Below are positions 44,211 to 52,526 of a stretch of DNA of 64,000 bases, in pieces; positions within the stretch are counted from its first letter, which is position 1; the number at the start of each line of letters is the position of its first letter. This DNA is from Escherichia phage Killian: the sequence record OQ446694.1; one strand, written 5' to 3'. Under the pieces are notes generated by a model, which saw only the letters and a program-made list of their open reading frames with translations, had not been told where the DNA came from and made no database searches. A program made the position numbers and the translations under genes.

Positions 44211-44698
44211 TTACTATTGCAACAGTATTGTACAGTTTCAATATGAATATCGTAAATTTTATCCATATCAGGAGATTTAACAGGCTCATCGATTATATAC
44301 AGAATTCGAGAAAGCGTTAAACCTCTGAACTTGCTACCTCTATTACCAACAAAACTACGGACAGAATCAGTAAATAAACGGAATCGAATATCATCGCTAG
44401 AATAACGAGAAAATTCTTTTTTAATGTGGTCCGCAGAAATTTTAGCGTAAGATGAAGTATTAGAAAGAACAATAACTGTTCCACCGTCATACAACCAATT
44501 AGCAGCAAAGTTAGTCACAGCAATTGATTTACCGGATTGACGTCCACCATCTAGTCGAAGTGTGCAGTATTCTTTAAATAAATGTGGCGAATCAGGTACA
44601 TAAAATCCACTATTACAAATTTCTTCTACTCTAGCATCAGAATGGTGTGTAAAAGCATTCATCAGGGATAGATAAGGACCAGTTAAAAATGTTCTCAT
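44156..44698 (-). CDS. hypothetical protein (vs.8 position)
   Basis: track ORF 44156..44746 trimmed to MRTFLTG start. Confidence 0.4.
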   Translation of the reverse strand: MRTFLTGPYLSLMNAFTHHSDARVEEICNSGFYVPDSPHLFKEYCTLRLDGGRQSGKSIAVTNFAANWLYDGGTVIVLSNTSSYAKISADHIKKEFSRYSSDDIRFRLFTDSVRSFVGNRGSKFRGLTLSRILYIIDEPVKSPDMDKIYDIHIETVQYCCNSKCCIGGITRPQFFVIGMQ

Positions 44699-44708
44699 TT
44701 TGTTATCT

Positions 44709-45260
44709 CTAAATTTGGGCCATTCCATGGCGCATGAATTTTCCATTTCTGTATTTACCCATTACCGCACTTGGGCTCGACCTTATTACAGGTTGGCGGG
44801 AATCCCTCATAGAATCATGAGGTCCAGCTTGTTCCCATGTTATTTGAATGTAAATATTTTTGCCGTAGTATTTATACCAGTGTGGCTTCATTAAAATTTT
44901 TTCATCGAGTCGTTGTTGACTCAACTTAATAGCTGATTTGCATGGGTTATAATCATTTTTCCATTCTGCTGGAATATCGCTGATGTCAGGAACTTCAGTA
45001 TCTTTTATACTAAACCCACGTTTTAAGCATTCCATTATAATGTCTGATTGACGCTTTCGCAAAAATTCTAACTTATCGTAAAAGAACGTGACATGACCAG
45101 AACCTAAAATAAACTCGGAAGATATTTTAAAATCTTTAACCCGTTTACCATTTGCCACGTGTTTACGAACTATACCAAAAACACGTGGCAATTCACGGTA
45201 TTCTGCAATTAAATGTTGGTCAGCAAGTTCAGATACTAAAGTCAAATTAATACGAGTCAT
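44709..45260 (-). CDS. denV: endonuclease V DenV (pyrimidine dimer glycosylase), apparently C-terminally extended
   Basis: N-terminal 135 aa [17 protein letters not shown]... matches recalled T4 DenV; frame continues about 45 aa past the expected stop. Confidence 0.85.
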
Positions 45261-45282
45261 TTTATCTCTCCAAGTAACTGTG

Positions 45283-45317
45283 AATATACTATCACAATTC
45301 TAGGAGAAAATAAACTG
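45283..45317 (-). promoter_or_regulatory. early promoter upstream of denV
   Basis: -35 GTTTATT, -10 AGTATA. Confidence 0.4.
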
Positions 45318-45620
45318 TTATTTACCTTTAATTACTTTAGCTGCTTCGATAGCCGCTTGCTGAAGGTCATCCATAGACATACCGAATTTAGAAGCAAAGT
45401 TATCAATTTTCTTTTCGACAGCATTCAAAGGCTTGGCCTGTTTACCTTCATTAGCGCCAGGAAGAGCGAGAATACGCTCTTTGTCAATATAAAGGCTTAC
45501 AAGTTTCTTACGGTCTTTATCGGACAAATCGTGAAATGAATGGGCCTTTTTATTTATAGCGGCTTCTAATTTACCTGCACTCACTCGCGCTTCAGTAATA
45601 AATTCTTGATATGTTTTCAT
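45318..45620 (-). CDS. ipII: internal protein (IPII-like) with capsid-targeting N-terminus
   Basis: 100 aa; MKTYQEFITEA N-terminus matching the IP capsid-targeting/prohead-protease cleavage consensus. Confidence 0.6.
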   Translation of the reverse strand: MKTYQEFITEARVSAGKLEAAINKKAHSFHDLSDKDRKKLVSLYIDKERILALPGANEGKQAKPLNAVEKKIDNFASKFGMSMDDLQQAAIEAAKVIKGK

Positions 45621-45691: not shown

Positions 45692-46222
<531 letters not shown>

Positions 46223-51241: not shown

Positions 51242-51318
<77 letters not shown>

Positions 51319-51321
51319 TAA

Positions 51322-51987
51322 TTAAAATTTCATTTTTCGACCTTTAAACCATCCTTCTGGAATTGGGTCAGTTTTCTTAATACGTTTAGAAACTTTTTCA
51401 TCTAATGAATGAATCCACATCATACCAAATTGGGAATTCTTTTCGCCCTGTTGATGTTTATTTCTGGCGTGAGATTCTTTCATTTTATTAATAGTTTCAG
51501 GAGTATGGGTCTTGCCCAAGAAAGATTTAGTATTTAAAAATTTCTCTCTATACTTAGGATTATCCCAAAGCTGTTTAAACCTTTCTGAACCCATTTTACG
51601 ATATTTTTCTTTAAGGTCTGGGTCGTTCTCAAATCTGGTTTTAAAAGCGGCAGCTCCTTTTAAGGAAGCTTCTTTCTTTTTATCCAAATATTCTTTAGTG
51701 TTTAAATGGTCCCAACCACCTTCACCACCTAATTTCAAATTATAAACATCAGGGCGCTTTAAAAACTCTTCAGTCACAATATTCTTTTCTGACTCAAACA
51801 TAGAGGTTTTATCGTCAAAGAACTCTAATATTTCTTTAGAAAAATTTTCTATACCATACTTATCTTGGGCTCTTTTTAATAATTTACCAGAACCCATATA
51901 TCCATCATCTAAATTTTCGGTAGAATGAGCGCCTATATAGATTTTATTATTAATTTTATTTGTTATTTTATAAATGTAATGGAACAT
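51322..51987 (-). CDS. segB: GIY-YIG homing endonuclease (SegB-like) inside the tRNA island
   Basis: 221 aa; YIYKITN...KIYIGA GIY-YIG motif; lies between tRNA subclusters as T4 segB does. Confidence 0.65.
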   Translation of the reverse strand: MFHYIYKITNKINNKIYIGAHSTENLDDGYMGSGKLLKRAQDKYGIENFSKEILEFFDDKTSMFESEKNIVTEEFLKRPDVYNLKLGGEGGWDHLNTKEYLDKKKEASLKGAAAFKTRFENDPDLKEKYRKMGSERFKQLWDNPKYREKFLNTKSFLGKTHTPETINKMKESHARNKHQQGEKNSQFGMMWIHSLDEKVSKRIKKTDPIPEGWFKGRKMKF

Positions 51988-52028
51988 AAATATCTCCTAT
52001 TTCTAAGAGTATTTATGTTCCCAAAATA

Positions 52029-52100
52029 TGGCCCTGGGTGGAATTGAACCACCATCTGGCGATTATGAGTCGCTTGCTTGAACCTTCCAGCTACAGGGCC
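52029..52100 (-). tRNA. tRNA with CAU anticodon (Ile-lysidine type or Met)
   Basis: hand-folded; acceptor GGCCCTG/CAGGGCC; anticodon loop CTCATAA. Confidence 0.6.
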
Positions 52101-52106
52101 TTGATA

Positions 52107-52179
52107 TGCTGATTGACGGAATCGAACCGCCGACATCCTCATTACAAGTGAGGTGCTCTACCTACTGAGCTAAATCAGC
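52107..52179 (-). tRNA. tRNA-Thr (anticodon UGU)
   Basis: hand-folded; anticodon loop CTTGTAA; T-arm GGCGGTTCGATTCCGTC. Confidence 0.7.
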
Positions 52180-52186
52180 GAAATTA

Positions 52187-52273
52187 CGGAGGCGATAGGA
52201 TTTGAACCTATGAGTCGCCGGAGCGACTGCCGGTTTTCAAGACCGGTGCATTAAACCACTCTGCCACGCCTCC
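52187..52273 (-). tRNA. tRNA-Ser (anticodon UGA)
   Basis: hand-folded; long variable arm; anticodon loop CTTGAAA. Confidence 0.7.
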
Positions 52274-52275
52274 AG

Positions 52276-52349
52276 TCTCCGCGGCAGGATTTGAACCTGC
52301 GACATTCTGCTCCCAAAGCAGACGCTCTACCAAACTGAGCTACACGGAG
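52276..52349 (-). tRNA. tRNA-Pro (anticodon UGG)
   Basis: hand-folded; anticodon loop TTTGGGA; T-arm GCAGGTTCAAATCCTGC. Confidence 0.7.
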
Positions 52350-52361
52350 TAAATTAAATTT

Positions 52362-52433
<72 letters not shown>

Positions 52434-52439
52434 AAACTT

Positions 52440-52526
52440 TGGTACGAGAAGTGGGACTCGAACCCACAAGGAAATCATTCCGCAGCATTTTAAGTGCTGT
52501 GCCTTTACCAATTTGACCATTCTCGC
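52440..52526 (-). tRNA. tRNA-Leu (anticodon UAA)
   Basis: hand-folded; long variable arm; anticodon loop CTTAAAA; CCA encoded. Confidence 0.7.

Follow-up and report, generated by a model that had tools for sequence, protein, structure and literature searches.

Endonuclease V of phage T4, the product of denV, is an enzyme in which the α-amino group of Thr2 acts as the nucleophile, Glu23 is catalytic, and Arg3, Arg22 and Arg26 bind DNA. The internal-protein (ip) genes of T-even phages are reportedly polymorphic, and T4-type genomes are said to contain mobile regulatory cassettes; we know of no description of a denV stop loss in the work on either subject. Members of the endonuclease V family are typically single-domain proteins of ~135–145 aa that end just after an aromatic segment. 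When we searched the literature on the DenV C-terminus, the sole precedent found was cv-pdg-NLS, a Chlorella virus member of the family with an engineered basic 10-residue C-terminal tag; the tagged protein has been purified and put to use in DNA repair (PMC5768739).

The window analyzed here is a stretch of 64,000 nucleotides from Escherichia phage Killian (OQ446694.1), in which denV encodes 183 aa and so departs from the family norm (Table 1). Over residues 1–137, the product aligned without gaps to T4 DenV (NP_049733, 138 aa, from NC_000866), with 107 of 137 identities (78%, BLASTP), and to the structure 2END (PDB, E = 6.7e-69). Residues 1–86 matched the Pfam family Pyr_excise (PF03013) at 48.6 bits (cutoff 23, E = 1.1e-12). 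Thr2 and Glu23 are both present (MTRINL..., ...AEYRELPRV) and invariant in an alignment of 30 homologous sequences. Arg3, Arg22, Arg26 and the segment WYKYY (128–132) are also present; in the same alignment R3 and R26 are invariant and R22 and W128 nearly so. By its sequence, then, the window denV is an ordinary T4-type pyrimidine-dimer DNA glycosylase gene with an intact catalytic core. A short basic C-terminal tag, at least, is compatible with use of an enzyme of this family, as in cv-pdg-NLS, and the core of the extended protein is probably still active.

Table 1. Features of the denV region of the window, with related features in other records (L numbers).
Feature	Position	Strand	Basis or remark
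denV ORF, as it stands	44709..45260	-	183 codons + TAG, ATG start (ORF listing, sequence)
DenV core, codons 1-138	44847..45260	-	T4 endonuclease V ortholog (BLASTP, PF03013, 2END, AlphaFold2 pLDDT mostly >90)
Codon 139, CAA	44844..44846	-	TAA stop in close relatives (nucleotide alignments, exact-variant search)
Extension, residues 139-183	44712..44846	-	45 codons from the denV-vs.8 spacer; pLDDT 30-36, no secondary structure
TAG ending the extended frame	44709..44711	-	10 nt upstream of the vs.8 ATG; kept in relatives, TAT in T4
Conserved spacer element, candidate structured RNA	44717..44825	-	Conservation, P2 covariation, covariance-model match
Hairpin CCUCAU..AUGAGG of the spacer element	44805-44822	-	Part of candidate RNA
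Core P2/P3 and invariant 18-nt stretch of the spacer element	44756-44798	-	Part of candidate RNA
Hairpin GCCA-UGGAA-UGGC of the spacer element	44719-44731	-	Part of candidate RNA
vs.8 homologue, 180 aa	44156..44698	-	Next gene downstream of denV, no overlap; 543-nt CDS, MRTFLTG...
ipII-like internal protein gene	45318..45620	-	Directly upstream of denV; relatives annotate 'internal protein II' or 'internal virion protein'
Lysozyme e	45692-46186	-	Gene order e - ip - denV - vs.8, as in T4
Internally deleted second denV	L006:1440-1565 (HX01); L009:1730-1850 (SH-2); L010 ~1400-1515 (N2); L013 (ECCR664)		Downstream of an ipII-like gene
Further element copies	L016:1487-1550; L017:1480-1543; L018:1483-1546; L034:10525-10642 (Pylas)

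The departure begins at codon 139. We aligned the gene ends of the window, UGKSEcP2 and VIPECOOM01, and then those of ZCEC15, T4, HX01 and EcNP1. VIPECOOM01 and ZCEC15 read TAC ATT TAA ATA ACA TGG where the window and UGKSEcP2 read TAC ATT CAA ATA ACA TGG, so that a single T/C difference at position 44846 (minus strand) separates the two forms. The aligned 261 nt across the gene end are gap-free among the window, UGKSEcP2, VIPECOOM01 and ZCEC15, and the spacer of ZCEC15 is 100% identical to that of the window over 147 nt (44699–44845). We conclude that the extension is caused by the natural loss of a stop codon through a single transition. VIPECOOM01 has a further in-frame TAA five codons on, which raised the question of a second stop loss; this TAA is private to VIPECOOM01-type sequences, the majority sequence at the site being GAACAA, as in T4, Sf21, EcNP1, HX01 and ZCEC15, and one change therefore sufficed to open the frame. 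Programmed readthrough or recoding was rejected, codon 139 being a plain sense CAA and the first in-frame stop the TAG at 44711–44709. A frameshift artefact or a pseudogene was likewise rejected, as the gene-end alignments to UGKSEcP2, VIPECOOM01 and ZCEC15 contain no indel.

These results bear on a sequence-only reading of the window, which had noted that the first ~135 residues match the 138-aa T4 endonuclease V and that the frame runs on to 183 aa; both observations hold, with 45 further codons up to the TAG. It had also proposed a nucleotide alignment around the gene end, and that comparison places the stop of the relatives at codon 139, T4 DenV itself being 138 aa long. Among the causes it offered, natural stop-codon loss agrees with the TAA of the relatives, the CAA of the window and the lack of an indel. 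A sequencing or assembly frameshift does not, as there is no length difference and CAA recurs in four independent GenBank assemblies. The idea of a genuine C-terminal extension survives insofar as the frame is open, but the tail derives from a non-coding spacer, is predicted to be disordered and bears no sign of a selected domain.

To understand how CAA could have come to stand at the end of denV, we compared the surrounding genes among relatives. The denV–ip region is a mosaic: ip genes may be missing or may lie upstream or downstream of denV, bordered by one and the same conserved spacer and by denV ends present in duplicate. Sf21 and ESh16 carry an Ip4 gene between denV and the spacer, and EcNP1 carries two ip genes there. 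A dead copy of denV comes after an ipII-like gene in HX01 (a Mosigvirus), SH-2, N2 and ECCR664; megablast did not separate such remnants from full-length copies. These dead copies keep the promoter region, the ribosome-binding site and ATG ACT CG, joined to ...ATGAAAAAATTTTAATGAAGCC... (codon ~118 onwards). As the deletion junction is identical in all four phages and sits in a GACTCG microhomology, the remnants probably descend from a single deletion event. A separate full-length denV with a normal stop lies upstream of the remnant in each phage inspected for it (HX01, SH-2 and N2). The remnants themselves read CAA, not TAA, in four cases out of four, as do the shorter vestiges of EcNP1, phiE142 and L029.

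The genes of the Ip4 type end in TTC AAA TAA at the same spacer junction (Sf21, L002:2432-2440; metagenome contigs L155 and L157), at which denV reads ATT (T/C)AA ATA A. Because Ip4 and denV ends both meet the spacer at this point, its 5' edge appears to be a recombination joint common to different upstream genes. Ip4-type genes normally finish with the ...CATTCAAATAA... junction, which we also found in every decayed denV 3' remnant that we examined. Given that remnants carry CAA and that Ip4-type genes end in TTC AAA TAA, CATTCAAATAA is the ordinary state 5' of the spacer. It provides a stop in the ip frame only; the denV frame needs T. We infer that the CAA allele probably arose, or became more widespread, when a full-length denV recombined homologously with a remnant or an Ip4 end in the course of ip cassette shuffling, of which it would be a by-product. 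Plain recurrent T-to-C point mutation may also account for the allele; its outcome would be indistinguishable from gene conversion, and it is consistent with ZCEC15, which differs from the window at the stop by one base and has an identical spacer.

An extended denV could also be a gene on its way to loss, if the tail or the passage of ribosomes through the spacer RNA impaired function and such copies were later replaced by a second normal denV and deleted internally. All four internally deleted remnants carry CAA and are of the same KNIYI allele type as the window, and the phages inspected for it (HX01, SH-2 and N2) carry, upstream of the remnant, another complete denV that ends in a normal stop. 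Yet the core of the window denV is otherwise undamaged, with all catalytic residues kept, and CAA could equally postdate the death of the remnants. We consider this course of events unlikely. That all the internally deleted remnants come from CAA copies of one allele type would fit neutral decay after duplication as well as a disadvantage of the extended form.

In phages with CAA, ribosomes would continue in frame through the 145-nt denV–vs.8 spacer and lengthen the protein by 45 residues before they terminate at a TAG, 10 nt short of the vs.8 start. In an AlphaFold2 run with the 30-sequence alignment, most core residues were modeled at pLDDT >90, whereas residues 139–183 fell below 50 (30–36). 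The tail is basic, with a net charge of about +4, and on this model it is probably disordered. It is most likely a passenger, neutral or mildly harmful, rather than a new domain, because the spacer sequence appears to be conserved for non-protein reasons, as a structured RNA-like element (see below). Taken together, we find it very likely that the 138-aa stop of denV was lost naturally through a one-base change from TAA to CAA and that the resulting tail is a likely passenger.

Could the extension instead be adaptive, with a basic flexible tail that helps DNA binding or scanning, or with translation near the vs.8 start that couples vs.8 to denV? The allele persists in several isolates, its stop adjoins the vs.8 ribosome-binding region, and there is the precedent of cv-pdg, which was purified and used with 10 residues added at its C-terminus (PMC5768739). 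But the tail is whatever the sole open frame through a conserved non-coding element encodes, it has no predicted structure, the allele is rare while the 138-aa form dominates, and CAA occurs in dead denV remnants too. An adaptive tail is, on this evidence, improbable, slightly more so than a gene on its way to loss. Whatever its fate, in CAA phages denV ribosomes should cross the spacer element and terminate beside the vs.8 ribosome-binding region, and such passage could disturb the RNA fold, couple the translation of vs.8 to that of denV or have no measurable effect.

The core of the spacer element reads ACCUGUAAUAAGGUCGAGCCMAAGUGCGGUAA, and the helix that closes it covaries and contains a bulged G that is invariant. 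Covariation was assessed in an ungapped alignment of 28 distinct sequences. In the helix that flanks the core (P2), columns 17–21 pair with 54 and 56–59 around the bulged G. The pairs found are AU/UA/UG/GC at one position, CG/UA/GC/GU at the next and CG/GC at a third. Changes on both sides were counted in 26 cells, a value reached in 0 of 500 shuffles, and slid controls gave 10 at most. The outer helix shows a compensatory change from CCUCAU/AUGAGG to CCUUAU/AUAAGG in one metagenome contig (L155). In the class of sequences represented by Pylas, GAAUG/CAUUC alternates with GAGUG/CACUC in the outer helix, and GUUGUGAC/GUCACAAC with GUUGUGAA/UUCACAAC. The inner hairpin ACCU-GUNNNA-AGGU and the 18 nt that follow it are invariant. 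Of two invariant alternatives, the local ACCU/AGGU hairpin and ACC/GGU plus GUA/UGC, RNAalifold favours the second, and the sole double change in the inner fold (L157) is contradicted by T4 and class D sequences.

As the fold of the whole spacer was no better than that of shuffles (z = 0.24), support is confined to local helices. A covariance model built from the alignment matched the window exactly once, at 76.9 bits. Simple scans found no promoter or terminator in the spacer, ARAGORN found no tRNA on the element, and Rfam 15 (E ≤ 1) gave no match on it in window positions 44400–45400 or in Murica, Ivi, Pylas, L032, L038 and Mineola. The core sequence was not found in the literature that we searched. 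The compensatory changes suggest that the spacer element is probably a structured RNA.

We followed the distribution of the element by distant blastn with the spacer and by pattern scans of IMG/VR and metagenomes. A 32-nt core is nearly unchanged in T4-like phages of several genera (Tequatrovirus, Mosigvirus, Jiaodavirus Mineola and the CC31 type), in the rV5-like Vequintavirus Murica, in the N4-like Klebsiella phage Pylas and in the 44.9-kb phage Ivi. All the annotated records that we inspected place the element between genes, in the sense orientation of the genes beside it. Beyond the T4-like phages it is often found close to tRNA clusters, at a distance of a few hundred nucleotides at most in Murica, Pylas, L032 and L038. 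The window has seven tRNA genes (Arg, Met, Thr, Ser, Pro, Gly and Leu; 51242–52526, minus strand) ~6 kb from denV, which is usual in T4-like phages; the element does not recur at this cluster, and the window contains one copy only. A weak match to the Rfam family tmRNA_permuted was observed in Pylas (L034:10995-11082, 33.7 bits, below the gathering score of 47), ~400 nt downstream of the element in a 1-kb unannotated stretch after the tRNA cluster.

The element was not found in 5,426 complete E. coli genomes. In bacterial genomes, an 18-mer of the element gave 96 matches without flank conservation, where ~70 would be expected by chance according to our rough estimate; we treated these matches as chance occurrences and rejected them as copies, as their flanks are unconserved and their number is near expectation. 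The one exception is a Levilactobacillus repeat, ...GGGCGGACGGGTCGAGCCAAAGTGCGGTCTCGAC..., on many contigs of L. yiduensis and related species (L053, L057, L061, L068, L078, L100, L103, L107, L125 and L143); its flanks are unrelated to those of the phage element, and only by chance do the two have the 18-mer in common. The 45 additional codons may be the translation of an undescribed structured noncoding RNA, with a ~45-nt core in a ~110-nt T-even fold, common to unrelated virulent enterobacterial phages, a reading that we hold tentatively and place just short of an even chance.

Whether denV overlaps vs.8, as the sequence-only reading had stated, depends on the start of vs.8. The longest vs.8 ORF begins at an upstream ATG (44746), and only this start overlaps denV. 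The ATG at 44698, which is conserved across genera and used by all annotated relatives, leaves a gap of 10 nt, and the proposed overlap is thereby withdrawn. The tail-encoding DNA exceeds the neighbouring genes in conservation, though what is conserved is not a coding sequence. Its conserved blocks ACCTGTAATAAGGTCGAGCCCAAGTGCGGTAA and ATGYGCCAWGGAAYGGCCC are 26, 29, 30 or 31 nt apart in different phages, and since this spacing varies by non-multiples of three, the spacer is best read as non-coding. In T4, vs.8 is annotated as encoding 219 aa (NP_049732), of which the first ~33–39 codons are translated spacer (L004:2308-2413; NC_000866 64807–64912, minus strand); this fusion of spacer and vs.8 needs a T4-specific change of TAG to TAT and an 8-nt insertion. 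Relatives start at MRTFLTG and encode 180 aa, which suggests that the annotated start of T4 vs.8 probably lies too far upstream. In Shigella phage ESh16, the annotation places a 33-aa 'hypothetical protein' (102-nt CDS, L008:1582-1683) inside the spacer and in the frame of the DenV tail. As the block spacing is not a multiple of three across phages, this ORF is probably not a gene, and both annotations look like open-frame artefacts.

The two annotations, which share the denV frame, could alternatively be taken at face value: the spacer would then be a small gene for a 33-aa protein, as in ESh16 and at the N-terminus of T4 Vs.8, and the window DenV a fusion to it. Against this stand the distances between the conserved blocks and the dependence of the T4 fusion on changes private to T4. 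In Murica, the frame (read by eye) is closed by a TGA four codons ahead of the core, and no start codon lies in the interval. Moreover, the core is invariant in its nucleotides, third codon positions included, and its flanks covary as RNA helices. We therefore judge a small protein gene to be very unlikely and retain the interpretation of the spacer as a probable structured RNA.

To estimate how widespread the CAA allele is, we searched public phage genomes. The records closest to the window Tequatrovirus sequence are PBM-1 and UGKSEcP2 (99.7% identity over 701 nt). A denV CDS of 552 nt is annotated in UGKSEcP2, UGKSEcP1 and EPIMAM01 (sewage, Lebanon) and in PBM-1 (poultry bedding, Pakistan). 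The exact 183-aa protein is deposited as CAH1615419.1 and, for phage Killian, WEU67897.1, with six contigs in total. CAA occurs on two linked backgrounds, AAATACTAC (window, UGKSEcP2 and PBM-1) and AAGTATTAC (UGKSEcP1 and EPIMAM01). An exact-variant search of ~50,700 phage records returned the CAA variant four times among the matches listed. In the protein cluster defined at 90%, which has 170 members, the representative and the 13 other listed members are all 138 aa long. None of the best 120 cluster representatives covers the tail, and none spans more than 78% of the query. In IMG/VR, the exact pattern of a full-length denV with CAA occurred in no contig and that with TAA in one, counts too small to carry weight. 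As judged from these deposited sequences, the CAA allele is a natural and real minor variant already present in public phage genomes; within the same records it is rare, and the 138-aa form dominates. Its persistence in isolates from several countries indicates that it is at least not strongly deleterious. A miscalled base or frameshift in one genome is barely credible: stop-loss ORFs in draft phage genomes are often artefacts and the allele is rare in both searches, but there is no indel relative to relatives, the identical CAA is found in phage Killian and in four assemblies that different laboratories, in different countries, produced independently, and it stands on two different linked backgrounds.

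For DenV itself, the stop loss is a small matter: a textbook 138-aa repair enzyme circulates with a 45-residue tail predicted to be unstructured, and annotation pipelines hand down the extended form as 'endonuclease V' without comment. We see in it a known enzyme with a probable passenger tail, already in public records unremarked. As a case of genome evolution it would be a clean one, in which ip cassette shuffling leaves duplicated gene ends able to remove a stop codon. The spacer element is the more useful product of this analysis, being unannotated, kept across phage families and marked by covarying helices, and wrongly given as protein in two records at least, at the N-terminus of T4 Vs.8 and in the 33-aa ORF of ESh16. 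Should it be a structured noncoding RNA, the denV stop loss would amount to an experiment made by nature, one that asks whether the element can work only when it is not translated, with the CAA phages as a ready-made perturbation.

Compared with the described systems, the window locus is nearest to T4. T4 DenV (a pyrimidine dimer DNA glycosylase–AP lyase; 2END, 1VAS; PF03013) and the window protein have in common MTRINL, Glu23, Arg3/22/26, WYKYY and the gene order e - ip - denV - vs.8; they differ in that the window protein is 183 aa long, not 138, with CAA in place of the stop followed by a 45-residue tail predicted to be disordered. The 138-aa DenV of ZCEC15, VIPECOOM01 and Sf21 (protein cluster P0001) is closer still, at 97–99% nucleotide or protein identity and with the common end ...YGKNIYI; in ZCEC15 and VIPECOOM01 codon 139 is TAA, in the window CAA. 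As in the T-even genomes in which ip genes are reportedly polymorphic and cassettes mobile, the denV–ip region is a mosaic across the window and its relatives, with duplicated denV ends. It resembles cv-pdg-NLS in adding a basic C-terminal peptide to a member of the same family, but that tag is engineered and 10 residues long, whereas the window tail is a product of nature, with 45 residues and an arbitrary sequence. Finally, the first ~33 residues of T4 Vs.8 correspond, frame included, to residues 151–182 of the window DenV, both being translated from the spacer: the spacer frame is joined to vs.8 in T4, to denV in the window through the change from TAA to CAA, and to neither in most relatives.
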